The notes: generated from the sequence alone by a model not told the origin. Shown: positions 7,905-54,200, numbered from the stretch's first letter. The stretch is 64,000 nt of DNA from Nannocystis bainbridge (GCF_028368995.1 NZ_JAQNDL010000001.1:1152001-1216000), one strand, 5' to 3'. Numbers and translations are program-made.

Positions 7905-8209
7905 TGATCAGGCTACGCCGGAATGTTGAGTGCAGGATGCTTCCCTAACGCATGTTCAAGCGCGGAAACCGAGCGAACCACATCACAAGCTGCTTGACGA
8001 GGCTCGGCTCGAGCGTATCGTCGAGACGTCCGAACACTCGCCTCGCCGGCCATGAGCGCGACACGGGAACCCATCAAAAGCTGACATCGCGTATGGGCGA
8101 CAACAGATTCGCCCATACATCTCCCTTCTTCGCCCCACGAAATTTATGCGCGCCCGGGGGCTTACAACCTTCTCCTATCGTCATCAACCTCCACGCCTAT
8201 TGGAGTATC

Positions 8210-17500: not shown

Positions 17501-17940
17501 GCGCGGTTGCGATGTGGACGCTGGATCGCCTCCTGAACCTGTTCCGCTACGCAGACGGGGCGCGAGGAGAAGTTCACTGCTTGGAGCCCAACCGCGCTGG
17601 AGGGCTCACCACCTCGGTGGACCAGGTCCTGGGCGCACGGACGCCCCCAGACGACCTGGATCGCGCCACCGCCATGAAGTTTCGGGAGTGGTGCGAGCAA
17701 AGGAGCCAAGGGCGGAAGTTGCAGCTGAAGTTCAGGCACCGGCGAGCCGCCCACGAAATCGGACATCAGCGGAAACTAGAGGTCGCGTTCAAGCCCGGCG
17801 GCCAGCTGTCCCGCATCGTGGCTCTGTTCGATCATGGCCTGGATTGGGTCCGCCCCATTGATGGCCGGAATACTCAGCCCTGGACCAGGCAACCCATGAG
17901 AGCAGAGGCCTCGCACATCGTCGTCCTAGCGCTCCCATAG
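11548..17940 (+). CDS. druE: DruE-like SF2 DEAD/DEAH helicase with DUF1998-like region, 2130 aa
   Basis: AGTGSGKTESF, YPLNALVNNQ, TNFSMLEYMLIRP, LDEAHVY, TSATLG, FSDSRQGAA, EHTAQL, STTMEMGIDLG, NYWQRGGRAGRR, LPRFGFP, LALSEYAPGGEV and several CxxC pairs. Confidence 0.85.
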   Translation: MNSSATRPHYQFDAFGAQRKLRERLADFLLDSFNVRDPELAHRLHRDWATSTRQSDRLFAPMLVQGAFPFPPDKTPVDLQSPSLSARDPERPLHPRTIKLLAAAGIDYPLYKHQVETIRHAAAGKTVILSAGTGSGKTESFLIPVIDRLFWDHELGLDDISQPGIRAMIIYPLNALVNNQVERILELLRDEADLTFAFYTSRLKESRTAAERQYHNLGREVPPDCQIIDRKSLRGLGDAGKSRQGPPHILVTNFSMLEYMLIRPLDHSIFRHIMYDGRPRLRAIVLDEAHVYAGAQAAEIHMLLRRAALRFGTHLEDIQGYATSATLGGDDEGKTLHKLAADMFSSPRERVASIVGHRYLPSEGSPVRTDLGPLQIPDAPPDAPPLVPEDLQTVHFDAKGNPDDLVRDDAAAHKAARACVELGLATADEIPGLVAKSESRPALLLHHVLSRHPGLVELRRWLFEGDGGGEKHETRYLHEVVHKLFPTASASAGAERATYALLQLGSLARLTAKRHPYIPARMHLFVRTPAGVWVKPKRDGADSPTWPWGSLTTQPPAEIAEDDPWLRLYLCRSCGCPMLRVWEKAGAVQAPLLFATPASQGTVKMAHFSSDTSRRLPDSWGGQPVDLVPVIAGDDDRYESLALDRCPHCKIEKAELEDLQLPARAALPALVDGIYPSLGEIPQSSDTLPGGGRRMLAFSDSRQGAARLAVEIERTHDIGVNRQLLWRLLATLGPESDDGQVKFSDLHAALVADPSLRQRAEASAVEDAPDDDFLHNLATVSIFEELSTPPVTRGNTLELLGLVEVSYPGLRQLKLPTELRGALSEAAWHDLLATVLDYARSRGAVKRESLRSEFSGKSDSLYDLLPLPHKDRFIVLASKQQGVQRQRTAAPPSDESDRTIPLHSTQGRLLNFARRLHERHPLPVDAEALLRAVWDALLAGAENPVCKRWLKKSAAGPGTGSETGLQIDLKHLQFKAHLDGPPFIEPVTGRLQFRSVLGVSPQPDNPHPLRPLDDEERQRWASRHAVRRVRDHQLLGLWSVEHTAQLEVDELEEQERKFREGKRNFMSSSTTMEMGIDLGGLTLVLLANVPPGPANYWQRGGRAGRRTDGSSLVLTLAQPRPHDQRVFAEPRAFLERPIVPPQVRLDSRALLLRHVNAFLLAEFFRAVVVPQGGGNPLRAFGYVGEFILDPAPHHAVAAALRDRLAIDKDETLADVFLRWLDLLPADEPLMQVVCERLIVGTCLANEPLEALVRVCAAAFTHARDRARREESVLKQQEQRERDLGEGKRDDKYLRLLERQKKHLAREPLLSYLVRNDFLPRFGFPIEVVRLDTTYKVSWRDDDDVHPDEDGAALRMERSLDLALSEYAPGGEVIAKKRVHRVAGLVPNWLAEEAGPATRRYFSECSQCHFVTFEDNTQPQQCEVCEHKTESFLEFLDRSARMSSKKAAKERADAGDEEADGTPQPSPVRSYLVPAGFAVKFGKGPRRLAGSVKRMPAPKATIGPSHSPPSEIIAGALAMGFTPKSSLFIRSEGQVAYTSRSVGTRYGFGYRICQACGLAAPEKDWDKQPPGEYRGHELLRWTRKCEHGDRSWVHEVLGIQQSVDAYRVRLLGDLAPPTSGFSDAEKFFLSLAVCMQQAAAEKLAVDPRVLQPTIATYRDDLGQAGTEAVIYDSSGSGLLAHLDEEPLGLIQKVCELLDTRDFAAFVQFDNQFLVEQGRLDIHWLRRHLIEDEGRRVRLMKGSAMFEREGAAPLRGMTPRMAAQNLIDDDALTVSLQAAELDESAFEPGQVLRAVWARAVRGSQRAGRVRLQIGRLPELRGDPGQLLLASRLAQLVELGVELAHVSSTALPPLEEDCWNVLARSPRGVRVLGGMSTSGDTLGAWKGPAFGRAWLKDGFAVESAQELAAKLAWEQFEERWSRASLVSADALRPGPEQRQWVLVIPGGDTSPEATNISAILEDRTGLGRLAELGEVTSVTYRDRYIERSAVAMWTLDRLLNLFRYADGARGEVHCLEPNRAGGLTTSVDQVLGARTPPDDLDRATAMKFREWCEQRSQGRKLQLKFRHRRAAHEIGHQRKLEVAFKPGGQLSRIVALFDHGLDWVRPIDGRNTQPWTRQPMRAEASHIVVLALP

Positions 17941-24862: not shown

Positions 24863-27629
24863 TCAGCGGCGTGGACGATTTTTTTTCGCGCCGTCACCGA
24901 CGCTCGCGCGCGCGAGGGCGACGAGCCGGGCGTCGAGCTCCGCCAGCGCCTCCGCGCCGCCGGGCCCGCGGGCCGCGGTGGCGCGGGCGTCGAGGAGCGC
25001 GGCGCGGGCCTCGTCGGGCCGCTGCAACGCCTGCAGCGCCGCGCCCTTGCCGGCGAGCACGAGGCCGAGCAGCTCGTGGTCGGGCGTGGGCGCGGCGCGG
25101 GCGATCGACTCGGCGGCGGTGAAGGCCGCGAGCGCCTCGGCGTGGCGGCCCAGGGCCAGCAGGCTCTCGCCGGTGTTGTTGGCCGTGAAGGCGCGGTGGA
25201 GGTGGCCCGCAGGCAGGATCCGCTCCTGCAGCGCCGCGGCCTCGCGGTAGGCCGCGAGCGCGGCCTCGTGGTCGCCGCGCCAGAAGGCCGATCACGCCGA
25301 GATTGAGGAGGGCCGCCGGCAGGTCTTCGTGGTCGGCCGGCAGCAGGCGGCGGAACAGCGCCAGGGCGCGGCGGCCGTGGTGCTCGGCGCGTCCGAGCGC
25401 GCCGGCCTGGACCGCCTCGTGCGCGAGCGCGGTGTGGACGCGGGCGGCCTCGAGGCTGGCGGCGCCGTGGGTCTCGCTCCAGATCGCCAGCGCCGTCGCC
25501 AGCAGGGTCCGGGCCCGCTCGCCCTCGCCCTGGCGGACCAGCAGCGTCGCCATGTCGTGGGCCACGCGGGCGTACTGCGGGTGGCGCGGGCCGTACTGCG
25601 CGGCGGCGGCGGCCAGGGCGGCCTCGAAGGTGGCGCGGGCCTCGTCCTCGCGGGCCAGCGCCTCGAGGGCGTTGGCGAGGCTCTGCTGGGCCTGGACCCG
25701 TCCCGGCTGCGGGCCCGGATGGGCGTCGAACCACGCCAGCGCGTCGCGCTGGCGGCGGGCCGCCTCGTCGTGCTGCTCGGCCCGGGCTGCCGCGACCCCG
25801 AGCGCGAAGAGCAGCGCGGCCCGGCGCGGACCCTCGTCGTCGACGCGGTCGAGCGCGGCCGCGGCCCGGCGCGCCCACAGCCGTGCGCGCTCCGGCGCCA
25901 GCTGCTGGCGGGCCGCGAGGGTCGTCAGCGCCAGCCAGCCGCTCGCGGCCAGGTCGTCCTCGCGGGCCGCCTCGGCGAGGTCGACCGCGTCGAGGAGGCT
26001 GGCCTCGGCCGGCTCGATCTCGCCCCGCTCCGCCTGCAGCTCGCCGACGGCGAGGAGCGCGTCCGCGCGCGCGGCCGGATCGGCGAGGGTCCGCGCGTGC
26101 GCCAGCGCGCCCTCGGCGAGGCCGCGCGCGCCGGCGTGGTCGCCGGTGGCCGCGTGGGCGCGCGCGACCGCGAGGGTCTGCCGCAGCGCGTCGCCCTCGT
26201 CGCGGGCCGCGGCGGCGAGGGTGCTCGCGGTCGCGCCGGCGCAGGCCGCCAGCGACGGCAGGACGGCCACCGCGGCGACCGAGCGCTCGACCGCGACGCG
26301 CTCGCCCGCGGCGAGCCGGTCGACCAGGGCCGCCACCGCGTGCGCGCTGCGCTCGAGGCAGCGCCGCCGGGCGTCGAGGAGCGCCGGGGAGTGCAGCCCG
26401 CTGGTCTCGCACAGGCCCCGCCGGGCGGTCTGCCACGCCGCCACGTAGGCGCCGAGGGCCGCGTCGACCCGGTCCCAGGCCGCCGGGGCCAGCGGCAGCC
26501 CGGAGCCGCGGAAGGCGGCCGCGAGGGCGGCCCGACGCGCCGGGTTCCACGCCTCGTCGAGGCCGCGCTCGACCGCGGCGCAGGCGTCGGGGGCGGGCGA
26601 GCGCGGCAACCAGGCCCCCGCCAGGCCGCCGAGCGCCAGCAGGACCCCCGCGAGGCCCAGGCGCCGCCGCCGTCGCCCGGGGTCGCGCTCCAGCGCGGCG
26701 CACAGCGCTTCGAGCGAGGGGTGGCGGTCCTCGGCGGCGGCGGTGCCCCGCGCGAGCTCGCGGTCGAGCCAGCGCGGGTGCGCCGGCGGGCGGCGGGGCG
26801 GCGGGGCGTCGCGGCCCGGCAGCCAGCCGTGGAGCGCCTCGAACAGCGAGACGCAGAGGCTGTAGATGTCGCTGCGGAAGTCGGGGGCGCGCCCGGCGAG
26901 CTGCTCGGGCGCGACGTAGCCGACGGTCCCGCCGCCGCCGGCGGTGGCCGACGCGCCGGCCGGGGACGGAGCGGCGTCGGCGAGCGTCGCCGTCACCGCC
27001 CGCCCGGCCGCGCGCGCCAGCCCGAAGTCGACCACGTACACGTGCTCGTCGGCGTCGACGAGCACGTTGTCGGGCTTGAAGTCGCAGTGGACCAGCCCGG
27101 CCGCGTGGGCGGCCGCCAGCCCGCGCGCCGCCGCCACGTAGAGCCGCACCGTGGCCCGCCACGGCCGCGGCGCCTCGCGCTGCCAGACGCGCAGCGTGCA
27201 GCCGCGGATCAGCGCCATCGCCAGGTAGACGTGGTCGTCGACCGCCCCGACCTCGTGGATCTGGACCACGTGCGGGTGCGAGAGCCGGGCCAGCAGGCGG
27301 GCCTCGCGGAGCAGACGGGCCTCCTCGTCAGGGCCGGAGCGGTCGGCGCGGGTCAGCTTGAGCGCCACCTCGCGGCCCAGCACCGGGTCGAACGCGGCGT
27401 ACACCTCGCCCATCCCGCCGGCGCCGAGGCGACGTCGCAGCTCGTAGCGACCGACGCGCGGCCGCACGGGCGCCTCGTCGAACAGCGCCGCGGCCACGGC
27501 CGCCTTGCCGCGCGCGTACTCGCGGTCGTGGGCCAGCGTCGGTGGGGCCAGCGCCGCGGCCAACGCCTCCGGACCTCGGTCGCTCGGCGGCGCGGAGGTC
27601 TCGCTCGGTCTCACCGCGCTCCCCGTCAC
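24863..27629 (-). CDS. Ser/Thr kinase with TM helix and TPR repeats, one frameshift near 25290
   Basis: LGAGGMGEVY, VALK, HCDFKPDN, DFGLA, YVAPEQ. TPRs continue in a shifted frame (LGVI / AFWRGDHEAALAAYREA...) to the stop at 24863. Confidence 0.88.
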
Positions 27630-28249
27630 ACGCTGGGGTCGCGCCGCTCGCGGAGCTGCTGCGCCCAGCGCTCGAGGTTCGCCTGCGTCGACGCCAGGCG
27701 CGCGGGCGCCTCGCCCAGCCGCTGCAGCGCCTCTTCAAGCAGCTCGTGGGCGCGGCGCAGGCGGCTGCGGGCCGTCGGGTGCGGCGCGCCCACGACCTCG
27801 GCGATCTCCGCGGTCGTCATCGACTCCCAGTATCGCAGCTCGAGGATGAGCTGATAGTTGAGGGGGATCCGTCGCAGCGCCTCGAGCAGCAGCCGCTGCT
27901 CCTCGGCCTCGGCGTGCAGCGTGCTGACGCCCGGCGACAGGTCCTGCAGCGTCGACTCCTCGCCGATGTCGACGGTCTCGCCGACCCGCTGCCGGCGGCG
28001 AAAGTGGTCGCGCAGGACGTTGTGGGCGATCGCGAACAGGTACGGGCGGAAGCTCGCGGCGGAGCGCAGGCGGTCGCTGCCGGCGACGCACGCGGCGAAC
28101 ACCTCCTGCACGAGATCGTCGCTGCCGTGATCGATCTTGCTGCGGAAGAAGCGGACCACCGAATCGTAGTAGCGCTCGAACAGCAGCTTGCCCGCGCCGC
28201 GATCGCCGGCCCGCCACGCCGAGAGGAGCGCACCGTCGTCCGTCGTCAA
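27626..28249 (-). CDS. ECF-type RNA polymerase sigma factor
   Basis: LLSAWRAGD, DDLVQEVF, SFRPYLFAIAHN, EIAEVVGAPHPTARSRLRRA. Stop overlaps the kinase start (GTGA). Confidence 0.92.
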   Translation of the reverse strand: MTTDDGALLSAWRAGDRGAGKLLFERYYDSVVRFFRSKIDHGSDDLVQEVFAACVAGSDRLRSAASFRPYLFAIAHNVLRDHFRRRQRVGETVDIGEESTLQDLSPGVSTLHAEAEEQRLLLEALRRIPLNYQLILELRYWESMTTAEIAEVVGAPHPTARSRLRRAHELLEEALQRLGEAPARLASTQANLERWAQQLRERRDPSV

Positions 28250-28395
28250 GCAATGGCCTGGGTAACACGCGCCGCGACGCCGCGGCAAGCGACGTCGGCG
28301 TCGGGGCAGGACCGCGCCGCGCTCGCGCGGTCCTGCCCCGGGCCACCGATGCCGACCCTGCCTGCGGACTGCGGTTTCTGCATACACTGCCGCCG

Positions 28396-29766: not shown

Positions 29767-30361
29767 CGTCGCTATAGAGCGCATAGCGATCGTGCACACG
29801 GGCGAGCTCGGCCCGCTCGTCCGTCGTCAGCGGTCCTCCCGAGGCCGGGCTTTGTCCCGCGAGCTTGTTGAACGACCATGATACGAGCCGACCTGGTGCA
29901 GATCGGCGGCCGCATCGAGGATGGTCGGCAAGTTCGGCCGCCGACAGCGATCCATTGGTGTCGACGTCGGCCTGGGCGCGGAGGCGGCGGCGCTCGGGCG
30001 CCGATACGCGGCGACGCGGCGTGGACGCGGCGATAGTGGTAGGCGCTTCACTCCGAGCACCGCGGCGCGCGCACCCTAGTTCCTGGTCCTCGCTTCGGTC
30101 GTCGGCGACTGCACCGCCAACACCGCCACCTTGCCCTCGTCGACCGCCACGACGAGCAGCATGGGCACGACGGCGAGCCCAACCGGCACCCGTACTGTCC
30201 ATTCAGTCCTGACCACCTTCGGCTCCCGCCGTCACGCTCCCGTCACGCCACCCCGCGTATAGCCACTTTCGCAACGCAAGCATCGCATTGCAATCCCGGA
30301 AAACTCTGACAGATGGCCGGGCATGTCAAACACATGTCCAAAACGAACACGAGAACACGTC

Positions 30362-32182
30362 ATGAACTCCCGTATCATCCTCCCCACAGCCCTCCTCCTT
30401 GCCTTTCCTGCCTGTGACGATCCCGACGCCCTGCAAGCCGAGGAGGCCCTCGAGCTCGACAGCGAAGCGGACGAGGACGGGGCCGAAGCCGGCGTCGGCT
30501 CGACCGGCGGCTTCGACCTCGTCGCCGCCCTGCGGCCGCAGACGATCGTCGGCGGCGATCCGGCCAGCGAGGGCGAGTACCCCTTCATGGTCTCGGTCAA
30601 CCTCACCGGCGTCGGCCACTGGTGCGGCGGCAGCCTGGTCGCGCCGCACTGGGTCTTGACCGCCGCGCATTGCGTCGACGGCCGCGCCCCCGGCAGCATC
30701 ACCACCGTCATCGGCCGTACCGACCTCGCCAACACCGCCACCGGCGAGACCCGCAACGTCAGCCGGATCGTCGTCCACCCGCGCTACAACACCGAGGCCG
30801 GCGACTACGACCACGACCTCGCACTGCTCGAGCTGTCCTCCGCGTCGACGCGCACCCCGATCGAGCTGGCCGCGCCGCACAGCGGCAGCGATCGCGCCTG
30901 GTGGATGCCCAACGCCCTCGCCACAGTGATCGGCTGGGGCGCCCTGTCGGAGGGCGGCCCGGGCACCGACCACCTGCAGGAGGTCGAGGTGCCGGTCCTC
31001 ACCGACGCCTACGCCGCCCAGGCCAGCGTCTACGGCGCGCGCTACAACCCGGCCGTCCACGTTGCCGCCGGTCCAGTCGCCGGCGGCCTGGACTCGTGCC
31101 AGGGCGACAGCGGCGGCCCGCTCCTGACCTGGACCGCCACCGGCCTGCAGCAGTTCGGCGTCGTCAGCTGGGGCGACGGTTGTGCGCGCCCCGACAAACC
31201 CGGCATCTACACCAAGATCGGCGCCCAGCGGCTGCACCGGTGGCTGCGCAGCGTCATCCACGAGTCCCCCGTAGTAGGCGACGTCAACGGCGACGGCCGC
31301 GACGACATTATCACCTTCACCCACGGCGACTCGAGCACTGGCCCGCTCGATGTCTACGTCGCCCTCTCCAATGGCAGCAGCTTCGGCGTCGGCCAGGTGT
31401 GGCAGGGCTGGTGGGCCCACCGCGGCCACACCGCCGGCGTCGGCGACTTCGACGGCGACGGCCGCGACGACATCTGGGCCTTCAGCGAGAGTCAGGTGTG
31501 GGTCGCCCTCTCGCGCGGCTACGACTTCAACGGCGCCATCTACAACAGCAGCGTCGGCACCACCGACATGGACGACATCGGCCGCGTCGCCGACGTCAAC
31601 GGCGACGGCCGCGACGACGCTGTCCTGTTCGCCGCCGACGGCACCGGCGACGTCCACGTCATGCTCTCGACCGGCGCGAGCTTCGGCGCCAAGACCAAAT
31701 GGCACGAGTACTTCGCCCCCGAGGGCGAGACGCCGATGCTCGCCGACGTCAACGCCGACGGCCGCGCCGACCTCATCACCTTCACCCAGAGCTTTCTCGG
31801 CGCCCAGGTCATCGTCGCCCTCTCCAACGGCTCGAGCTTCGGCACCCCCGCCGTGTGGACCTCGTGGTTCGCCCCCGCCGGCGAGGTGCCCGCAGTCGGC
31901 CACTTCAACGCCGACGCGCTCGCCGACATCGCCACTTTCGACCGCAACTACAACGTCTACGTCGGCACCTCCAACGGCACCAACAACTTCGCCTCCGCCC
32001 TCTGGACCTCGGGCTTCGGCGACTGGAATGACACCCTGACCGCCGGCGACGTCAACGGCGATGGCCGCGACGACCTCATCGCCTTCACCCAAGACCTGAA
32101 CGCCGACGTCTGGGTCGCCCTCTCCAACGGCGTCAGCGGCTTCGGCGCCTCGTACATCGCCCACAACTTCTTCGCCCCGTGA
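30362..32182 (+). CDS. Trypsin-like (S1) serine protease lipoprotein with FG-GAP/VCBS repeats
   Basis: Lipobox-like LLLAFPAC, IVGG, LTAAHC, DLALL, DSCQGDSGGP, and repeated GDVNGDGRDD motifs. Confidence 0.93.
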   Translation: MNSRIILPTALLLAFPACDDPDALQAEEALELDSEADEDGAEAGVGSTGGFDLVAALRPQTIVGGDPASEGEYPFMVSVNLTGVGHWCGGSLVAPHWVLTAAHCVDGRAPGSITTVIGRTDLANTATGETRNVSRIVVHPRYNTEAGDYDHDLALLELSSASTRTPIELAAPHSGSDRAWWMPNALATVIGWGALSEGGPGTDHLQEVEVPVLTDAYAAQASVYGARYNPAVHVAAGPVAGGLDSCQGDSGGPLLTWTATGLQQFGVVSWGDGCARPDKPGIYTKIGAQRLHRWLRSVIHESPVVGDVNGDGRDDIITFTHGDSSTGPLDVYVALSNGSSFGVGQVWQGWWAHRGHTAGVGDFDGDGRDDIWAFSESQVWVALSRGYDFNGAIYNSSVGTTDMDDIGRVADVNGDGRDDAVLFAADGTGDVHVMLSTGASFGAKTKWHEYFAPEGETPMLADVNADGRADLITFTQSFLGAQVIVALSNGSSFGTPAVWTSWFAPAGEVPAVGHFNADALADIATFDRNYNVYVGTSNGTNNFASALWTSGFGDWNDTLTAGDVNGDGRDDLIAFTQDLNADVWVALSNGVSGFGASYIAHNFFAP

Positions 32183-32221: not shown

Positions 32222-32660
32222 GGGATTGCCCCGAAAACGTGGACACGTTGCTTATGCCGCTTGAGTCTGCGCCTGCTCTGCGTAGAAGCTCTCCTCGTAG
32301 GCGATCGGGGTCGAGTAGCCGATCGACGAGTGGCGACGCTGGCGACTGTAGAACACTTCGATCCACTCCGAGATGACCGTCCTCGCGCTCTCACGGGTGA
32401 GGAAGATCGTGCGGTGGACGAGCTCGGTCTTCAGCGTGCTGTTGAAGCTCTCGGCGACCGCGTTGTCCCAGCAGTTGCCCTTGCGGCTCATGCTGCTGGT
32501 CATGCCTGCCTGGCGTAGGGCCTCGCGGTAATCGTCTGCTGCGTACTGGGAGCCGCGGTCGGAGTGGAAGACCAGGCCCTCCAGGCGCATGCTGCTTTGC
32601 AGGTTGCGGCGGCGGAGGCCGTCGGCTTCGCAGTTGGCGAGGACCGCGAGGGCAAGATCA
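32221..32660 (-). mobile_element. IS3-family element remnant (transposase C-terminus and right end)
   Basis: FHSDRGSQY, SMSRKGNCWDNAVAESFNSTLKTE, RRHSSIGYSTP. End sequence gtgtccacgttttcggggcaatccca. Confidence 0.9.
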
Positions 32661-32887
32661 TCATCATGGGCGCCCTTCAACAGCCGAAGACCGACGCGAA
32701 CGGCTGGGTCTTCGCGATCCCGGGTCCGATGGGCGCGCCTGTATGGGAGGTCGTTCGCAACGGGCCAGGCCAGGGGCCGGACGAGGCCGCGGGCCTCGCG
32801 GTCGACGCGTGGGGCTACAGCGACATCGTCGGGAGCGAGTTTGACGCGTTGCAGCCGCGGGCGTTCGCGCTGCGCCTTTATCCGTAG
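32655..32887 (+). pseudogene. C-terminal remnant of a beta-propeller-type protein
   Basis: NGPGQGPDEAAGLAVDAWGY...LRLYP*; 5' part lost at the IS3 scar. Confidence 0.45.
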
Positions 32888-33134
32888 CGCGTCGATGACG
32901 AACGAGATCGGTGTGCGCGAGATCGAGGTCAGGAATCACGGGCGCACCGCTGGCGCGTCCTCCTGGTGACGGAGAAGGGGCCTGTCCTAACGGTCACAGT
33001 CGCGCCGCGCGAGTGCACCAGCGCGATCGTCGGCGTCGAGCGCGACCCAGCTACATGAGAAGATAGCCGCCGAGATGAAGATACTGGCTGTGGACAACCA
33101 CAAGGGCGGCGGCGCCCGGGAACAGGGACGCTCC

Positions 33135-36100
33135 ATGAAGCACGCACCGACCGACTGCAACCCGGCCTGGGAACACGCAGAGCGGCAAGCTCGCGACTGG
33201 GCCGCCCGCGTCGGCCTCGTCACCACCGACCGCGACCGCCGCCGGCTGGCGAAGATGGGTCAGGGACGCATGGCCGGCTGGCTCGCGCCGCACGCGGATC
33301 CAGGCGAGCTCGCCCTGCTCGCGCAGTGGGGTGCTTTCATCGCCCTCGTCGACGACACCTACGACCGCGACTCGCAAGCCGGGCCCGCGCAGGTCGACGA
33401 CTTGATGGATCGGCTCGTCGCCATCGTGACCCACTCCTCGGTCGACCACGACACCTCGATCCCGGCGGTCCGGGCCCTCACGGATCTATGGCCGCGCTCG
33501 GTGGCAGGGACCGCTCGCGGGTGGGCCCCGAGGTTCGCCGAACACTACCGGCGGTTCGCCGACGCGACCCGCGAGGAGGCGCGCCTGCGGGCCGGCGGTG
33601 TCCGCCTCGACCTGAAGCGGTACCTCGAGCTGCGCCGCCATACGATCACCGCGATGCCCGTGCTCGACCTGATCGAGCGCACCCTCCCGGCCGAGGCCGA
33701 CGTCCTCGACAAATTGCGGTGGATGGTCGTCGACGCGATCGCGTGGACCAACGACCTCGCCTCGGCCGAGCGCGAGCTGGCCGAGGGCACCGACAACCTC
33801 GTCAGCGTGGTCGCTCGCGAGCACCGCTGCGACCGCCACGAGGCCGCCGCGATCGTCCGCGCCATGCTCGACGAACGCATGGACGACTTCGACGACGCCG
33901 CCGCCGCTCTGACCGCCGCGGGCCCGTGGCAGGCCGGACTCGGCCCCCGCGTCGCGCTCCTCCGGGCCGCGCGCGACGGCTCACTCGCCTGGCAGGGCGA
34001 GACCCACCGCAACCGCACCGAGCCCAGCGACGCCCGCGGCCCTCGCTCCGTCCCGGGCGTCGACCCGCTGATCCGCCACCTGATGCCCGCCGTCGCCGCC
34101 GACGGGGCCGTCCGCGACCGCTGCGCCAGCCGCGTCCTCGAGACCGCGCTGCTGCTTTCCCTGCTCCGCGCCACCGATACCCACCCGGCCGAGCAAGAGC
34201 TCGCCGCCCGCTACCTGCGAGCCCGTCGCTCCGACGCCGACGCCCTCGACGCCCTCCTGATCGACGCCTGCCTCGACCCCAAGACCACCGCGCCGCGGGC
34301 CGTCGCCGCCGCCGCCGCGCTACCGCTGCCGCTGAGCCGCGGCACCGCCGGCCGCGGCCAGCTCAAGTTCGCAATGCTGCGGGTGGTGCTCCACTTGTTG
34401 TGCGGCGCGCCCGTGGGCGACCTCGAGATCCCCCCACTCTCCACGACCGACGAGATCACGACCTTCACCGAGGTTCACCGGCTCGTCCTCCGCATCGTCC
34501 AGGCGCCACACCTCCATGCGGTGTCCACCGGCGAGGTCGAGCGGCTGCTCGACCTGCTCGGCACCAGCCGCAATCGCGTGCTATGGGAGGCCAGCGCCAC
34601 GACCCACCTGCTCGGCCTCCACGCCGTGCGCAGGTTCCGTCCGACCCACCGCGTGATCGCCGACGGCCTTCTGCGCCTGACGCTCGCGCAGAACCCCGAC
34701 GGCGGCCTGCCCTTCCTCGACAGCCAGGACCTGTGGCTCGCGGCCGTCGCCGGGCTCGCCTTCCTCCACCACGCCCGCCTGCGCCCGCTCACCCGCCGCA
34801 TGGCGGCGTTCGTCGCCGCCTGGCAGGCGCGTGACGGCGGCTGGCCGTTCGCCTCCGGCATGATGCAGACCGACGTCGATACGGCGACCCGCTGCATGGA
34901 GTTCCTGCGGGCCGCCGATGTTCATCGCTACCGCGTCCAGCTCGACCGCGGCGCCGCCTACCTCGCGCGCATGGCCGGGCCGACCGGCGGGTTCCCGACG
35001 TGGGTCCGCGGCGAAGCCCCCGACCTCGACATGACCGCGGGTGCGATCCTCGCCCTCGCGCCCGATGGTCAGCGCCACCGCGACTTGCTCGTCGCCGCCA
35101 CCGACTTCGTCCTCGCCGCGCAGTTGCCCGACGGCACGTTCGAGCGCAGTTGGACGCTCAGCGAGGCCAGCGCGATCCTCCGCGTCGTCGACGCCCTCGA
35201 CGCAGTGCGCAGCAGTTCGTCCCCCGTGGTGGTCGACCGGATCGCCGCCGCGATCCAGCGGGCGGTGGCCCGGCTCGCCGCCACCCAGAACCACGACGGA
35301 GGCTGGGGCCGAACACCCGATGCGGACAGCGACGTCCTCTCGACCGCCCAGGCCCTCCCCGTCGTCGTCCGCCACGGCGACCCGGGCCACGCCGCGCGCG
35401 CGCTCGCCTATCTGCTCGCGCGCCAGGATTCCGACGGCGGGTTCACCTCGATCCCCGACCAGGTCGGGCCGCGCCCGCTGCCGTTCGACTTCCCGGTTCT
35501 GGCCGACATCCACGTCCTGACGGCCCTCCAGCGGTCCGCCGAGCTCACCAACACCGCGGCCCTCGCCGGCCGCGCGCCGCGGATCGGAGACCCTGACTGG
35601 TCCGCGCTCGCCTCGCGGATCCGCGGCGTCGTCGTGCGCCCGCGCGACCCCACGTACGAGCAGGGGCGTCTGCTCGTCAACCAGCGCTACGACGACGTCC
35701 GCCCGCAGGCCCTCGTCTACCCGGCCTGCGTCGAGGACGTCGTTGCGGTCGTGCGGTTCGCCCACGACCGCAGCGTCCGCCTCGCGCTGCGCTCCGGCGG
35801 GCACAGCTACGCCGGCTACTCGACGGGACCCGGCCTCGTGCTCGACGTCGGCTCGCTCAACACGACGAGCGTCGGCGGCGGCCGGGCCCTGTTCGGCGCC
35901 GGGGTCAAGGGCATGCAGGCCCACCTCGCCCTCGCGGCCGCTGGCGCCGGGCTGCCGCTCGGACGCTGCCCGTCGATCGGCCTGGCCGGCGTGACCCTCG
36001 GCGGCGGCCTGAGCGCGTTCACCCGCGCGTGGGGCCTGGCCTGCGATCACCTGCGCAGCGTCGAGATCGTCACCGCGGACGGCCGGATCCGCCGCGTCGG

Positions 36101-36992
36101 CCCATGCTCCGAGCCGCCCGACGACGACCTGTTCTGGGCCCTGTGCGGTGGCGGCGGCGGCAACTTCGGCGTCGTCACCTCCCTCGAGTTCGCCACCGAG
36201 GTCACCCGCGACCGCCACTTCGCCAGCTTCATCCTCACCTGGCCCGCCACCGACACGGCCGCCGTGATCCGCGGCTGGACGCTCTGGAACGCCGACCAGG
36301 GCACGCCCCGCACCCTCAGGAGCGCGTTCGAGCAGCTCAGCGACGCCGGCGCTCCTTCGCTGCCCACCGTGACCGGCACCTTCATCGGCACCCCCGACGC
36401 CCTGCAGCCTGCGCTGGACCGCCTGATCGCCGCCGTCGGCCGCTCCGAGGTCCAACGCCTGATCACCCCGTGCAGCTACATCCAGGCCGCCACCGAGGCG
36501 GAGCGGTGGGGCGGCGGGACCTGGGGCGCCCGCGTCGCCTTCGCCGCCAAGTCGCACATCGTCCGCCGGCCGATGTCCCCCGCCGCCGCCCACGACATGG
36601 CCGAATCGCTCATGCAGCTCCACAGCCTCACCGGCGTCGGAGGCGCCAGCGGCCTGCTGATCGACGGGCTCGGCGGGGCCGTCGGCGATCGCTCCGCCGA
36701 CGCGACCGCCTTCCCGCACCGCACCGCCGTCGGCGTCGTCCAATACCACTCCTACTGGACCGCGCTCACCGACCGCACACACGTCGAGCGGCGCATCCAG
36801 TGGTTGCGCGCCATCCACGCCGTCATGCAGACCCACCTCGGCGTCGGCGGCTACACCAACGGCATGGACCCCGAGCTGCGCGACTGGCCCGCCGCCTACC
36901 ACGGCGACAACTACTCGCGGCTGCAGCGGGTCAAGGCCACCGTCGACCCCGCGCAGTTCTTCGACTTCCCGCAGGCCGTCACACCGCGGTGA
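33135..36992 (+). CDS. Three-domain fusion: class I terpene synthase, class II cyclase-like (prenyltransferase/squalene-cyclase repeats) and BBE-like FAD oxidoreductase
   Basis: DDTYD and NDLASAERE; DVDTA with QxxDGG[WFL] repeats; RSGGHSY, GRCPSIG, GGGGGNFGVVT, NYSRLQRVKATVDP. One uninterrupted frame. Confidence 0.9.
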   Translation: MKHAPTDCNPAWEHAERQARDWAARVGLVTTDRDRRRLAKMGQGRMAGWLAPHADPGELALLAQWGAFIALVDDTYDRDSQAGPAQVDDLMDRLVAIVTHSSVDHDTSIPAVRALTDLWPRSVAGTARGWAPRFAEHYRRFADATREEARLRAGGVRLDLKRYLELRRHTITAMPVLDLIERTLPAEADVLDKLRWMVVDAIAWTNDLASAERELAEGTDNLVSVVAREHRCDRHEAAAIVRAMLDERMDDFDDAAAALTAAGPWQAGLGPRVALLRAARDGSLAWQGETHRNRTEPSDARGPRSVPGVDPLIRHLMPAVAADGAVRDRCASRVLETALLLSLLRATDTHPAEQELAARYLRARRSDADALDALLIDACLDPKTTAPRAVAAAAALPLPLSRGTAGRGQLKFAMLRVVLHLLCGAPVGDLEIPPLSTTDEITTFTEVHRLVLRIVQAPHLHAVSTGEVERLLDLLGTSRNRVLWEASATTHLLGLHAVRRFRPTHRVIADGLLRLTLAQNPDGGLPFLDSQDLWLAAVAGLAFLHHARLRPLTRRMAAFVAAWQARDGGWPFASGMMQTDVDTATRCMEFLRAADVHRYRVQLDRGAAYLARMAGPTGGFPTWVRGEAPDLDMTAGAILALAPDGQRHRDLLVAATDFVLAAQLPDGTFERSWTLSEASAILRVVDALDAVRSSSSPVVVDRIAAAIQRAVARLAATQNHDGGWGRTPDADSDVLSTAQALPVVVRHGDPGHAARALAYLLARQDSDGGFTSIPDQVGPRPLPFDFPVLADIHVLTALQRSAELTNTAALAGRAPRIGDPDWSALASRIRGVVVRPRDPTYEQGRLLVNQRYDDVRPQALVYPACVEDVVAVVRFAHDRSVRLALRSGGHSYAGYSTGPGLVLDVGSLNTTSVGGGRALFGAGVKGMQAHLALAAAGAGLPLGRCPSIGLAGVTLGGGLSAFTRAWGLACDHLRSVEIVTADGRIRRVGPCSEPPDDDLFWALCGGGGGNFGVVTSLEFATEVTRDRHFASFILTWPATDTAAVIRGWTLWNADQGTPRTLRSAFEQLSDAGAPSLPTVTGTFIGTPDALQPALDRLIAAVGRSEVQRLITPCSYIQAATEAERWGGGTWGARVAFAAKSHIVRRPMSPAAAHDMAESLMQLHSLTGVGGASGLLIDGLGGAVGDRSADATAFPHRTAVGVVQYHSYWTALTDRTHVERRIQWLRAIHAVMQTHLGVGGYTNGMDPELRDWPAAYHGDNYSRLQRVKATVDPAQFFDFPQAVTPR

Positions 36993-37029
36993 CGGGAGCC
37001 GCAATGCCCGGGCGGTCTGGAGCGAGTGG

Positions 37030-39576
37030 CTATCGCCACAGCACGACCAGGCCGGCGAAAGTCGCCGCGTGCTGGCGCTGGGCGTTCGCTCCCGCGGAGC
37101 TGGCGTCGCCGAGCACGTGCGCGCTGGCCGGTCGGCGATCGTACCACTCCGGCACCAACCCGTCCGGCCGAATTCCCGCTTCGAACTTCTTAAGCGCGAT
37201 CGTAAGCCACGATCCGCAACTCTTCGAGTGGCCTAGCCCGGATTTCTGACCACGGTGACGACGGAGAGCGCGGCGGTCGCGGTCATGACCTCGCGGACGG
37301 GGCCTCACGCCCGACGCTGAGGTCGTCGAGGGCCGAGCTCGGCCCAAAGCACCGACCGGACTCGTCGAGGCGGCGAGGAGCGACCGTCGCGCGCGACAAA
37401 GCGCGCGCGACGGCCGGGCCGCGTGATCAGCCCTGTGCGAGCTGAGCGACCGCTTCGTCTCGTTGGCGGCGAAGGCGGCGCTTCTCTTGCGGTGATACTC
37501 GTAGACGTGAGCGGGCAGCTCGGGGTCCTCGACGAAGTCGACGAGCTCGGGGACGCACAGCGCGACGACCTTCTCGAGGGCGGCCTTGCGTTCGGATGCC
37601 GACCGGGCGGTGCGCGCGTGCCCGGCCCACGCAAACACGTTGTCGGGTTGAACCTCGACCGCCAGCGAATAGCAGGCCGCCTCGAAGGCCGCGTCGGTCG
37701 GACCACGCTCGACGAGCGGGGGATCGCCGTAGTCGTTCCACGGCACTGCACGTACGGCTTCGGCGGACTCTTTGTCCCACATCGCGTCGAGCGCCGTTCG
37801 AAGCGAGGCGAGCGCCTCTGCGTCGCGGCCGAGCCGGTGCAGCGCGAGCACATGCCATTGGCAGCCGAGGTGATGGGTATGGTCCGAGCCCAGCGCCTCG
37901 AGCAGTCCTGCGCCGGCTTCGCGCGCGGCCTGCCAGTCGCCCTGGGCGATGGCGTACGCCACCGCGCGGTCCCAGAAGACCGCCTTGCTAGTCTCGGCCC
38001 AGCGGTCTGTCAGCGTGCTCGGAATTTCACCGATGGACCTCGCCAGGGCGATGAGGTCTTTCACCTTCGCCGCGCCTTCGAGCGTATCGACACGATCCGA
38101 TTCGAGCACCGCACGCGCCTTTCGTATGATGGTCTGGGCGCGGTGCTCGTTGAAACGAATGAGCTTCTCGTCGCTGCACAGCGCGATCAGGTGGTTGAGC
38201 GCGGACGCGCGCTCTTCGGGGGTCGGCGCCTCCGACCCGAGCTGCCACCAAAGCTCCAAGTTGTTGGGAAAGCTCTCGACGGCGTGCTTCAAGCAGCGAT
38301 GGCGAAACGCCGGCGAGACGTCGGTGGGGATCTTATTCGCGGGATAGTTCTTCATCTCGTTCCCCGAGAGCGCCGTGACCACCATCGCAAACGCCTGCTC
38401 GTCGCGACCGAGCTTGTGCAGCGCCGTGGCGAGGCGTGTCCCCACGCGCGGGCGATCTCTCGAGGGGGTCAGGCGCTCGGCAGTGGCTCCGGCTTCCGCC
38501 GCCAACGACCAGTCGTTCAGATCCTCGGCTGCGGACATGACCTCGCACCAGAGATCGGCCTCTGCGGGATGCTTCCGCGCGAGCGGCAGCGCCAGCGCGA
38601 GCTTCTCGTTTGCCCGCTTCAGCTCGCCGATGGCCTTGAGCGCCTTCTTGAGCTCCTTGGCCGGCATCTTGGGCAGCCCGACGTTCTTGGCGTTGGCATA
38701 GAGCTCGTCGTACTTCTCCTGGAGCTCCTCGTCTTCCTCGCGCGTCTCCTGATCGAGCAGGCCCTTCTTGGCGAGCGCCGTGAGCAGCTCGAGAAAGACG
38801 TCGAACGAGGTGAACTCCCGCCCGGCCCCCGTCTCGTGGTCGTAGAACAAGATCTGACCGGGCGTGCCGCCGTCGAGCGAGCCCGTGGGGTCGAAGCAGT
38901 ACAGCTGCCCGTCGCCGTCGGCCATGAACGGCACCCAGCTCTCGGTCCAGGCCCCCGCTTTTTGCCTCCACTCTGGCTTCTCGGCGAGGATGCCATTCAT
39001 CATCGACCGCGTCTTCTCGATCTCGGCGATCGGCAGCAGCCGATAACAATCGAAGAGCTCGGCCTCGGTGCCGTCGTGGGCCGTGTAGATGGCCAGGAGC
39101 GTCGCGGGCACCTCGTGCCCACGCAGGACCTTCAGCAGGTCCTCGGACGCCGCCGGACGCAGCTGCGCGGCGACCTGCTTGTGCTTCTTCCGGAGCGCCT
39201 CGAGGAACGCATCGACCGGGGGCGAGCCGGACGCGCCCCGTGGCGCCTGCGCGGCTGCTTTGGCGGCCGGCGCCTTGCTCGCGCCAGCCTTCGGCGCGTG
39301 GCTCGCGGGTGCGCTCGTTGCCCCCGCGACGCTCGGCGCGGCTGGCTCGCTCGGCCCTGTCGTCGTGGTCTCGACGTACCCCTTCTTGGTCTTCTCGGCG
39401 ATGAGCTTGGATGCTTGCCGCTGCGCCTCGTCAGCGTCGCCAAACGTCTTGTCCTTCGCGCTGCCGGCCGTGCCGACGCGCCCAAAGCACACGGTCATGC
39501 AGTCGCCCTCGACCGTAACCTCCCAGAATTTTTTCGAGGTGCCCTCGACGAACTCGAACCGACGCGTTGCTGCCAT
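37030..39576 (-). CDS. WGR domain, SMI1/KNR4 (SUKH) domain and TPR-like helical repeats; C-terminus probably truncated near 37450
   Basis: RRFEFVEGTSKKFWEV...FGRVG...KTKKGY (WGR); LRPAASE...IYTAHDG...WVPFMADGDGQLYCFD...GQILFYDHE (SMI1). The last ~130 codons look non-coding. Confidence 0.8.
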   Translation of the reverse strand: MAATRRFEFVEGTSKKFWEVTVEGDCMTVCFGRVGTAGSAKDKTFGDADEAQRQASKLIAEKTKKGYVETTTTGPSEPAAPSVAGATSAPASHAPKAGASKAPAAKAAAQAPRGASGSPPVDAFLEALRKKHKQVAAQLRPAASEDLLKVLRGHEVPATLLAIYTAHDGTEAELFDCYRLLPIAEIEKTRSMMNGILAEKPEWRQKAGAWTESWVPFMADGDGQLYCFDPTGSLDGGTPGQILFYDHETGAGREFTSFDVFLELLTALAKKGLLDQETREEDEELQEKYDELYANAKNVGLPKMPAKELKKALKAIGELKRANEKLALALPLARKHPAEADLWCEVMSAAEDLNDWSLAAEAGATAERLTPSRDRPRVGTRLATALHKLGRDEQAFAMVVTALSGNEMKNYPANKIPTDVSPAFRHRCLKHAVESFPNNLELWWQLGSEAPTPEERASALNHLIALCSDEKLIRFNEHRAQTIIRKARAVLESDRVDTLEGAAKVKDLIALARSIGEIPSTLTDRWAETSKAVFWDRAVAYAIAQGDWQAAREAGAGLLEALGSDHTHHLGCQWHVLALHRLGRDAEALASLRTALDAMWDKESAEAVRAVPWNDYGDPPLVERGPTDAAFEAACYSLAVEVQPDNVFAWAGHARTARSASERKAALEKVVALCVPELVDFVEDPELPAHVYEYHRKRSAAFAANETKRSLSSHRADHAARPSRALCRARRSLLAASTSPVGALGRARPSTTSASGVRPRPRGHDRDRRALRRHRGQKSGLGHSKSCGSWLTIALKKFEAGIRPDGLVPEWYDRRPASAHVLGDASSAGANAQRQHAATFAGLVVLWR

Positions 39577-39684
39577 GGCCTTCCTCTACTCCAAGACGAC
39601 CCGCCCGAGAATCATTTTTGAGGTCGAGCGGACCGCCCGTGATTTGGATCCACGATTGCTTGCTACCCAGGGGTACGGCCGGAA

Positions 39685-39865
39685 CACGACAAGGTGTATC
39701 CGCGCCGAGTTCGAATTTCAACCTGCCGGACGGCGGTTCGACGCCGGACGGGTCAGCTCCGACGGCGGTTTGCTGCTGCTGCGCGAGCTGACCAAGAGTT
39801 CGGGTGTGTTTCGAAGGTTCGCGTCCTGCTTCCGAGACTACCGCGACCCGAGCCGCATCGAGCGG
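39685..39865 (+). mobile_element. IS1380-family transposase N-terminal fragment
   Basis: FDAGRVSSDGGLLLLRE...FASCFRDYRDPSRIE. Confidence 0.8.
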
Positions 39866-40006
39866 CGCGCGAGGATCCGCGGCTCCGACATCGGCCGCTG
39901 CGAGCGTTCGAGCCGGAGCGCCATGACCCTTCGGACAGCTCCGAAGGGTCATCGACAATTCATGCGCAGGCTCCTAGCCGGCGAAGCGGTGGTGAGCGGC
40001 CTCGCA

Positions 40007-40690
40007 TCAATTCGCGGCGCCGCTGCGCACCGCCTCGACCGTCGCCTCAGCGCCCGCGAGTTTGCCGACCAGGACGATCGCGCCGCAGCGGCCGTCGAGC
40101 GTCGCCACCGTGCGCGCGAGCGCCTTCTCGACGCAGGCGTTGGCCGCCGGCGAGCCGCCGCTGGCCGCCACGTCGCGCGTCTTGCCGCCGGCGAAGGTCC
40201 AGGTCGCCGCGAACGCTTGACCGGCTGGCGCGCACTTGTCGAGCGCGCGCCGCTGCTTCGCCAGCGACCCGGCGATGACGAGCGCGCCAAGCATCGGCAT
40301 ACCACCCATCACACCGCACATCAGGTCGCGCAGCTCGAGCCCGTCGGCGGCGATCGACCCGACCGTGAGATTGGCCTTGGCGATGAACGCGGGGCTCCTT
40401 GGCGCGCGCGCGGCCTTGGCCTGGCAGCCCTGCGCATCACCGAGCGCGCACGCCTTGTCGATGAACGCGGTCGTCGCTGCGGGATCGACGGCGACGCCGA
40501 GCCCCTTGTCGTGGACCACCGCGGCGATCAGACAGCCGACCGAGTTGCCGCGCTCGCACGCGCCGGTCGCCACGGCCAGCGCGCGCGTGGGATCCTGCGC
40601 CGCACCGCCGCTGCCGTTGAGCATGATCGTCGCCGCGCCCATGCAGGCCTCGGGATCACCCTGCTCGCACCGGGAGTCGCAGCCTAACGA
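40007..40690 (-). pseudogene. Sel1-like repeat protein, 5' truncated
   Basis: CEQGDPEAC, ACERGNSVGC, KACALGDAQGC; no plausible start. Confidence 0.65.
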
Positions 40691-53929: not shown

Positions 53930-54200
53930 CCGGTTTTTGGGGCAGATTTGTGGCAACCAGAGGCACCCAGAGGCAACCCGGGGCAAGTCGTCCATCTCGC
54001 CAAAGCCCCTCCGCGTGGAGATCCGCGGCGTTTTGGCAGCGGAGGGGCTTTTGGCGAGGATGGGTCAGAACTTGTTCCACAAGTACTGCGCCGTCTGTCA
54101 CAGTTGATTCATTCTAATCACCTGTGATCCCTTCGCTTTTTGGGCTTTCCCTTGCCTGCGTGAGGGCGCGTCCGAGGAGCCCGTGACGGATCCGTGACAA
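53930..54200. mobile_element. Putative att junction at the integrase end of the element
   Basis: ttggggca/ttgtggca pair, 10-bp-phased ggca repeats, inverted repeat 53997-54057, AT-rich patch 54100-54120, and CCGTGAC twice at 11-bp spacing (54181, 54192). Confidence 0.6.

Follow-up and report, generated by a model that had tools for sequence, protein, structure and literature searches.

The window considered here is the whole 64,000-nucleotide stretch of the Nannocystis bainbridge genome that was analysed (GCF_028368995.1, NZ_JAQNDL010000001.1:1152001-1216000), with a G+C content of ~70%. Its subject is the gene at 33135..36992 on the + strand, which, judged from its sequence, encodes a genuine single polypeptide with three predicted catalytic modules: a class I terpene synthase (alpha) domain, a class II terpene cyclase (gamma-beta) didomain and an oxidase domain of the berberine bridge enzyme (BBE) type, which binds flavin adenine dinucleotide (FAD). 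The Pfam families follow each other along the protein in the order Terpene_syn_C_2, SQHop_cyclase_N/_C, FAD_binding_4 and BBE. A single open frame of the + strand covers 33075..36992 (1305 amino acids); codon 21 of this frame is a Met at 33135, and a start there gives 1285 amino acids. Residue numbers are counted throughout from the upstream ATG at 33075, i.e. in the 1305-residue version. The gene includes the following features.

33135..36992, + strand: whole coding sequence; likely start 33135, upstream in-frame ATG at 33075, stop codon 36990-36992
33135..34019, + strand: class I terpene synthase (alpha) domain, residues 21-315 (Pfam, PDB, Foldseek)
33351..33365, + strand: DDTYD, first metal-binding motif (D93, D94, D97), at residue 93 (regular expression)
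33750..33776, + strand: NDLASAERE, NSE metal-binding motif (N226, D227, S230, E234), at residue 226 (regular expression)
33990..34013, + strand: WQGETHRN at the WxxxxxRY position, with Tyr replaced by Asn313, at residue 306 (regular expression)
33999..34055, + strand: linker 1, residues 309-327, predicted disordered (predicted local distance difference test, pLDDT, <50 in the AlphaFold2 model)
34056..35552, + strand: class II gamma-beta cyclase didomain, SsDMS-like, residues 328-826 (PDB search, Foldseek)
34353..34355, + strand: R427, at the place of SsDMS R132, which binds the diphosphate; invariant in both alignments
34872..34883, + strand: DVDT, predicted general-acid motif, at residue 600; D602 aligns with SsDMS D303
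35472..35474, + strand: R800, at the place of SsDMS R501, which binds the diphosphate; invariant in the alignment of 34 sequences, at least 90% in that of 22
35553..35624, + strand: linker 2, residues 827-850, weakly conserved; pLDDT <50 at residues 827-842
35625..36989, + strand: BBE-like FAD oxidase domain, residues 851-1305 (Pfam, PDB)
35802..35804, + strand: His910 (in RSGGHSY), predicted 8-alpha-N1-histidyl-FAD link; aligns with Clz9 His99, invariant
35967..35969, + strand: Cys965 (in GRCPSIG), predicted 6-S-cysteinyl-FAD link; aligns with Clz9 Cys157, invariant
36852..36860, + strand: Y1260-T-N1262, Y/FxN motif of the BBE family; aligns with Clz9 Y435-V-N

The original prediction for this DNA had described one unbroken 1285-residue frame with these three domains and had proposed a one-gene terpenoid pathway. 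The frame was borne out by the listing of open reading frames (ORFs) and by the translation, which has no internal stop. The motifs were all found by regular expression on the translation where they had been placed: DDTYD at 33351 and NDLASAERE at 33750 (predicted at ~33351 and ~33749), the WxxxxxRY motif altered to WQGETHRN at residue 306 (nucleotide 33990), DVDTA at ~34872, exactly five QxxDG[G/T] repeats (residues 539, 584, 683, 738 and 784), RSGGHSY at residue 906 and GRCPSIG at residue 963; the predicted BBE tail was recovered by Pfam. The three domain assignments also held, each being sharpened by Pfam, the PDB sequence search and Foldseek.

Shadow ORFs are frequent in DNA with 70% G+C, a long example here being 34581..37004 (-) with 807 amino acids. 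Despite them the frame is real beyond chance, because its third codon positions have a G+C fraction (GC3) of 0.93 and full-length homologues exist; a GC3-based choice among the overlapping ORFs also preferred this frame to the shadow ORFs of the opposite strand. Translation probably begins at 33135. This start is favoured because the first residue of a metagenome homologue (P0003, 78% identical) is the counterpart of the Met at this position, AGGGA lies 6 nt 5' of the ATG, and the ratio of nonsynonymous to synonymous substitution rates (dN/dS) against the Nannocystis punicea gene is 0.84 in codons 1-20 vs 0.23-0.33 in the three domains.

The homologue search of a collection of 5.8 billion proteins returned 74 matches. 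The combination of alpha, gamma-beta and FAD_binding_4 was present in 40 of them (P0002-P0038, P0040-P0042), 38 of these also having the BBE tail. A search for this domain architecture had been suggested in the original prediction, and it showed that the design is not unique, being shared by at least 40 protein clusters. The remaining matches included 21 two-part proteins (alpha and gamma-beta, 750-860 amino acids), one protein without alpha and 12 unrelated flavoproteins. The nearest relative was from N. punicea (94% identity), while the other named holders, at 58-64% identity, were Streptomyces, Streptantibioticus, Kitasatospora, Nonomuraea, Amycolatopsis, Saccharopolyspora, Saccharothrix and Actinosynnema; almost all named three-part holders were thus actinomycetes. 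This appears to be a sizeable, mostly actinomycete family without a characterised member.

Conservation was followed in two alignments, one of 34 three-part proteins and the second of 22 sequences, 21 of them two-part. The residues D93, D94, D97, R187, R188, N226, D227, W306, R312, R427, D600, V601, D602, T603, R800, H910 and C965 were all invariant in the first, and the key residues of alpha and gamma-beta were likewise kept in the 21 two-part proteins. Against the N. punicea gene, dN/dS was 0.28 in alpha, 0.23 in gamma-beta and 0.33 in the BBE domain; all three are thus under purifying selection.

Some relatives were longer than the window protein. According to Pfam, P0004 and P0006 (~1,850-1,900 amino acids) have the order alpha-gamma-beta-BBE-BBE, P0005 and P0007 (~2,140 amino acids) the order alpha-gamma-beta-BBE-BBE-SDR, and P0042 the order alpha-gamma-beta-BBE-GXWXG/DUF4334. 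Judged from these predicted architectures, the cyclase core has gained redox modules repeatedly, and this fits a role of the BBE domain in terpene tailoring. A quick maximum likelihood search of the alpha and gamma-beta part (55 rows; support from the Shimodaira-Hasegawa-like approximate likelihood ratio test, SH-aLRT, only) placed the window protein, the N. punicea protein and one metagenome protein in a supported clade, sister to a mostly three-part actinomycete clade. The two-part label changed seven times on the tree; some of the two-part rows are partial or frameshifted genes, so that the tree is not read as evidence that the BBE domain was gained or lost more than once.

Two single loci belong beside the family. 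In Streptomyces diacarni (L024 7941-9416) a free-standing BBE-like gene of 491 amino acids is 73% identical to the BBE domain, more than the about 58-65% found among whole three-part orthologues, and no terpene synthase lies within 8 kb of it; it is possibly a derived, detached copy of the domain. An 8-kb contig of a metagenome-assembled genome labelled Candidatus Melainabacteria (L027) carries a homologue with 60-67% identity and several frame changes, and its taxonomic label may be a binning error.

In the alpha domain, Terpene_syn_C_2 (PF19086) covered residues 84-271 with E 3.3e-35 and 122.1 bits, vs a cut-off of 23.7. The best solved relative was pentalenene synthase, both in the PDB sequence search (E 7e-24) and in fold, as Foldseek gave TM-scores (TMt) of 0.80-0.84 to pentalenene synthase entries. 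The best NCBIfam model was isoafricanol synthase with E 2.7e-38, far under its cut-off. By these sequence and fold matches the domain belongs, as a new member, to the bacterial sesquiterpene-synthase-like group, and is not a named enzyme. The three aspartates of DDTYD were invariant in 34/34 three-part and 22/22 second-alignment sequences, and in the NSE motif of the three-part proteins N226 and D227 were invariant and S230 and E234 kept at 90% or more. At the WxxxxxRY position W306, Q307, E309 and R312 were invariant and H311 and N313 kept at 90% or more in the 34 three-part proteins; the two-part relatives have the consensus WQxESxRY and thus the RY pair, vs R312-N313 in the three-part family. 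The arginines R187 and R188 are invariant, and their context RRHTIT corresponds to RRHTIG in pentalenene synthase. The AlphaFold2 model of residues 1-842, with a mean pLDDT of 77.3 and a predicted TM-score (pTM) of 0.68, yields the domain folds. No plant three-domain terpene synthase was present among the Foldseek matches listed.

For the middle part, Pfam gave SQHop_cyclase_C (E 4.2e-10) and SQHop_cyclase_N (E 1.1e-06), and Prenyltrans at residues 627-796 with 24.0 bits, slightly below the cut-off of 26.5. The sesquiterpene cyclase SsDMS, a drimenyl diphosphate synthase (PDB 7XQ4/7XR7), was matched at E 1.5e-61 over ~490 residues (12-500 of the 522-residue query), and the next PDB sequence matches were squalene-hopene cyclases at E 1e-05 to 0.02, with no bacterial diterpene cyclase at E <= 1 in the search with this query. 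The nine best Foldseek matches were all SsDMS entries (33-35% identity, TMt 0.75-0.78; 7xr7: E 2e-24, 35%, TMt 0.76), and Rv3377c came only at rank 45 with 15% identity. On this evidence the part forms a full gamma-beta didomain, of which SsDMS is the sole strong solved relative. The correspondences to SsDMS residues were obtained by counting the PDB search alignment against the numbering in the available text of PMC12232559, according to which D303 is the catalytic general acid and R132 and R501 bind the diphosphate. D600, V601, D602 and T603 were invariant in 34/34 three-part sequences, T603 standing at the position of SsDMS D304, so that the motif is DVDT throughout (34/34) instead of the canonical DxDD. 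The same text describes DXDT as a working general-acid motif in AsDMS. DVDT therefore lowers the strict class membership of the domain, but not the likelihood of its activity.

In the C-terminal part, FAD_binding_4 was found at residues 877-1008 (E 2.7e-24, 85.9 bits vs 26.4) and BBE (PF08031) at residues 1260-1302 (E 3.7e-13, 49.7 bits vs 20.6). The closest solved relatives in the PDB search were Clz9 (9P1P, E 1.5e-51; Clz9/Tcz9) and EncM (E 5e-42). For Clz9, the available text of bioRxiv 10.1101/2025.10.07.680811 identifies a bicovalent attachment through His99 and Cys157 and a Y/FxN motif. In the Y/FxN motif of the three-part proteins T1261 and N1262 were invariant and Y1260 kept at 90% or more. 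By these correspondences the part is a BBE-like oxidase of the bicovalent-FAD type, its covalent flavin being predicted. A contig of a close relative from the metagenome run X2 (1820 nt) joins 35525 to 36642 with one letter between the sides, omitting 1116 nt of the BBE domain; it represents a deletion variant or else an artefact of assembly.

The gene had been predicted to have no polyprenyl synthase gene nearby, and the neighbourhoods agree with this. Neither polyprenyl synthase, P450 nor Nudix was found among the 30 ORFs of the window (0/30), and the same three and any recurrent partner were lacking in all 127 neighbouring ORFs of 16 of the 29 related loci (0/127). The gene seems to be a single-gene cassette, bounded as follows.

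32981..37124, no strand: 4.1-kb single-gene cassette (blastn, 95% over 4145 nt against the N. punicea locus)
32252..32680, - strand: integrase-core (rve) fragment, remnant of an insertion sequence just upstream (Pfam rve_3, E 1.7e-16)

Only 32981-37124 of the window section 25000-45000 matches the N. punicea locus, the flanks being unrelated, and a search for terminal repeats at the cassette ends 32981 and 37124 gave only high-G+C noise. The distribution was surveyed in 61 genomes of the family, eight of the genus and 53 from 16 other genera. The full-length gene was present in 3/8 genomes of the genus and a remnant in 1/8, and the fused form in none of the 53 (0/53). This patchy occurrence of a single-gene cassette with unrelated flanks suggests horizontal transfer, and the cassette was probably acquired from an actinomycete-type source. 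The remnant, in Nannocystis sp. RBIL2 (L026 8001-9663), retains only residues 752-1305, with a frameshift at 1242/1243, and in another genome a second, partial copy (G060:C1:121543-124125; residues 17-877, 92% identity) lies beside the full copy. A DDE transposase fragment at 39089-40687 (+) and a phage-type integrase at 54118-55380 (-) are located further downstream. Together with the integrase-core fragment they give the region the look of a mosaic accessory island. The G+C fraction was 0.75 in the bin at 34-36 kb, vs 0.64-0.72 in most others, and 0.77-0.80 in the bins at 24-28 kb.

The predictions are probably best joined in a single scheme: a three-module protein, encoded by an accessory cassette, in which farnesyl diphosphate (FPP) would pass from class II cyclisation to the class I domain and then to flavin oxidation. 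The one-gene pathway of the original prediction thus gains support, as far as sequence can give it, from neighbourhoods without a prenyl synthase or conserved partner. The substrate would be a prenyl diphosphate of primary metabolism, most likely FPP, with no further helper genes. FPP is suggested because the cyclase is SsDMS-like, the alpha domain is sesquiterpene-like and no synthase of geranylgeranyl diphosphate (GGPP) was found among the ORFs of the window or the neighbours in the 16 loci, and the class II step is placed first because the diphosphate-binding arginines are kept. The gamma-beta domain would bind FPP by R427 and R800, D602 of DVDT would protonate the terminal double bond, and the product would be a bicyclic, drimane-type diphosphate. 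The alpha domain would then hold this diphosphate by Mg2+ bound at DDTYD and NDLASAERE, and ionise it off, giving an alcohol or a rearranged skeleton. Such an ionisation would be chemically easy for an allylic class II product, the drim-8-en-11-yl isomer, and in the available text of PMC13244436 AstC turns FPP into the allylic drim-8-ene-11-yl pyrophosphate by class II cyclisation. Finally, the BBE-like domain, with FAD on His910 and Cys965, would take a hydride (e.g. from alcohol to carbonyl), and O2 would reoxidise the flavin.

Several observations weigh against this scheme. In the alpha domain the RY pair is altered to RN. In the gamma-beta domain DxDD is changed to DVDT, SsDMS K133 is replaced by Gly428, the Mg2+ ligand E169 by His468 with E466 two residues off, and Y505 by Phe804; as a speculation, the last change might relate to an altered deprotonation that would give the drim-8-en-11-yl isomer. 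The drimenyl diphosphate of the SsDMS type is homoallylic and a poor class I substrate, so that another double-bond isomer or another chemistry would be needed. The likeness to SsDMS, being 35%, leaves the chain length of the substrate unfixed. BBE-like oxidases require an activated C-H bond, and a plain hydrocarbon product would be no substrate for them. The Nannocystis clade is sister to the actinomycetes and not nested in them, which does not show the direction of transfer. Activity, substrate and product are, moreover, predictions throughout the family.

The alternative that survives best is a diterpene version, unlikely but deserving some weight. It takes the protein as a member of the bacterial diterpene cyclases/synthases (DCS) with permuted domains (alpha-gamma-beta), which would convert GGPP to a copalyl-type diphosphate and this to a diterpene that the BBE domain oxidises. 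With C20 substrates the coupling of class II to class I is established logic, as the allylic diphosphate survives cyclisation, and for the alpha domain Foldseek also gave the Streptomyces type I diterpene synthase 9m25 (TMt 0.81). Bacterial clusters for diterpenes commonly include a GGPP synthase, whereas none was present in the 127 neighbours of the 16 loci or in the 30 ORFs of the window, and the best matches of the alpha domain were sesquiterpene synthases. Likewise the gamma-beta domain matched SsDMS (E 1.5e-61) and, among PDB sequences at E <= 1, not a single diterpene cyclase. Bacterial fused DCS proteins do exist according to the available text of PMC11469919, and in that of PMC12164552 two uncharacterised alpha-gamma-beta proteins are placed among the DCS candidates.

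A reversed order of the first two steps is improbable. The alpha domain would here ionise FPP to a neutral sesquiterpene or alcohol, which the class II domain would protonate for a second cyclisation before oxidation by the BBE domain. Such an order would agree with the position of the alpha domain first in the polypeptide, it would sidestep the problem of the homoallylic diphosphate, and it has a precedent in the Bacillus sesquarterpenes, where a class I-type enzyme (tetraprenyl-beta-curcumene synthase) precedes the class II enzyme SqhC. The invariance of R427 and R800, the counterparts of SsDMS R132 and R501, argues instead for a class II substrate that bears a diphosphate.

There is also a slight chance that one domain is catalytically silent, with the alpha domain, for instance, acting only as a cap or as a module that binds diphosphate or resembles a hydrolase; the protein would then be effectively bifunctional. 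The change from RY to RN in the three-part family and the difference of DVDT from the canonical DxDD would fit this, as would the fused HAD-like domain of AstC, which has no phosphatase activity and yet tunes the cyclase (available text of PMC13244436). Against it, the metal-binding and acid residues are all invariant in the 34 and 22 sequences, dN/dS is equally low in the three domains, and DXDT is active in AsDMS as given in PMC12232559.

An artefact in which assembly or sequencing error had fused two or three adjacent genes can practically be dismissed as far as sequence data allow, since, in spite of a frame change between alpha and gamma-beta at two loci (L003, L015) and several at L027, the same unbroken architecture recurs in 40 protein clusters from independent assemblies, three Nannocystis genomes carry the gene without internal stops, and soil-metagenome contigs from four runs span the gene and both junctions without indels, including the junctions at ~34040 (X1 record 3, X4 record 24, X2 record 10) and ~35560 (X3 record 19) for which read support had been asked by the original prediction. 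The numerous short metagenome joints of 20-30 nt from other organisms (90% likeness) were disregarded. Among the 22 sequencing runs listed for the gene, none was an RNA run.

Among fusions of class I with class II, the family would be the first to rest on an SsDMS-like cyclase of the sesquiterpene type, and it would be the first fusion of a terpene synthase with a BBE-like oxidase found in the literature searched. Fusions of terpene cyclases with tailoring enzymes are rare, 'only a handful' being known according to the available text of a 2026 preprint (PMC13684600). A wider and distinctly tentative idea is that the protein founds a class of single-polypeptide 'terpenoid assembly lines', in which an oxidised drimane (aldehyde or lactone) would be made from FPP by passage through class II, class I, flavin and NAD(P) sites. 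The predicted series would run from alpha-gamma-beta (~800 amino acids) through the addition of BBE (~1,300 amino acids) to that of BBE-BBE-SDR (~2,140 amino acids), and these shorter and longer relatives would illustrate pathway growth by domain addition. If the reading is true, the one-gene pathway could cross between Actinomycetota and Myxococcota as a 4-kb cassette, and a whole specialised-metabolite pathway may thus move between phyla as one gene. Such a compact route to an oxidised terpenoid, independent of a gene cluster, would be useful for synthetic biology, and the protein would offer a natural system for the study of intermediate passage between three active sites.

Other observations concern the surroundings and the genomes of the family. 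A free-standing SsDMS-like gamma-beta cyclase, with a frame of 549 amino acids and 31% identity to residues 327-832, is encoded outside the window in the same genome (G000:C2:234777-236297), and free-standing SsDMS-like cyclases with 30-35% identity were frequent in several genera of the family; class II sesquiterpene cyclases may be common in myxobacteria. A trypsin and FG-GAP protein (30323-32182, +) lies immediately upstream of the gene, and five actinomycete loci (L006, L009, L011, L012, L018), of which L011 and L012 are syntenic, likewise have FG-GAP and/or RicinB-lectin proteins close to the homologue; this proximity may be a coincidence. At 24894-28387 (-), where the G+C fraction is 0.77-0.80, a Ser/Thr kinase with TPR repeats (911 amino acids) is followed by an extracytoplasmic function (ECF) sigma factor ORF with a 4-nt overlap. 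The ORF at 11548-17940 (+; 2130 amino acids) was identified by PADLOC as DruE (DruE3, E 9e-211), and the ORF at 7952-11551 (+; 1199 amino acids), which overlaps it by 4 nt and has no Pfam or PADLOC match, stands at the place of DruH. This makes 7952-17940 a candidate for a Druantia anti-phage system of type III.

Multifunctional terpene synthases and bacterial fusions of class II with class I are already known, and the alpha-gamma-beta order has been named in print for a pair of uncharacterised proteins. The absence of a characterised enzyme of the three-part design had been part of the original prediction, and full-text literature searches agreed, giving no characterised or described terpene synthase-cyclase-BBE protein; a term search of PMC12009305 gave none either. 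According to the available text of PMC12164552, 'unexpected domains' accompany terpene synthase domains; FAD and BBE are unmentioned in it. The nearest solved kin of the C-terminal domain, Clz9/Tcz9 (9P1P, 9P1O) and EncM, are free-standing, act on aromatic or polyketide substrates and have no cyclase fusion, while Clz9, in the available description, has the same bicovalent His/Cys residues and Y/FxN motif as the window protein.

The bacterial DCS proteins (CseDCS, ChjDCS, StrDCS, bAbS) also include class II and class I in one polypeptide. In the available texts of PMC11469919 and PMC12164552 they have the order gamma-beta-alpha and DxDD, turn GGPP into diterpenes and have no redox domain. The window protein would fall outside this group, as its order is alpha then gamma-beta and its gamma-beta part matched no diterpene cyclase at E <= 1 in the PDB sequence search and Rv3377c at only 15% identity by fold. 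Closer in order are the uncharacterised A0A4U0NJT4 and A0A944KY65, in which alpha lies N-terminal to gamma-beta, an arrangement called a novel architecture in PMC12164552 (2025). Compared by that paper's description only, they carry DVEG at the DxDD position, and its available text names no FAD domain for them.

SsDMS (Streptomyces showdoensis; 7XQ4, 7XR7) and CavC (S. clavuligerus) have the gamma-beta fold in common with the window protein (35-37% identity), and the catalytic Asp, the two diphosphate-binding Arg and the QW-like QxxDGG repeats are also present in both. They are free-standing, with P450s and a separate Nudix hydrolase as partners (available text of PMC11035983), whereas here the cyclase lies between a class I synthase domain and a flavin oxidase domain, the motif is DVDT and not DVDD, and K133, E169 and Y505 are not kept. 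A joined CavC-CavF pair was tried as the origin of the fusion, with the cav cluster on pCLA1 of S. clavuligerus (L034), and rejected: the CavC-like cyclase is 37% identical to the gamma-beta part, but the adjoining class I synthase only 27.5% (E 4e-07) to alpha. The drimenol synthase AsDMS of Aquimarina spongiae and the fungal AstC and AacA are likewise class II sesquiterpene cyclases with DXDT, fused to a diphosphate-processing domain (available texts of PMC12232559 and PMC13244436). Their partner is, in these descriptions, a HAD phosphatase and their cyclase consists of beta only, whereas the window protein pairs a cyclase of both gamma and beta with a class I alpha domain and has an oxidase in addition.

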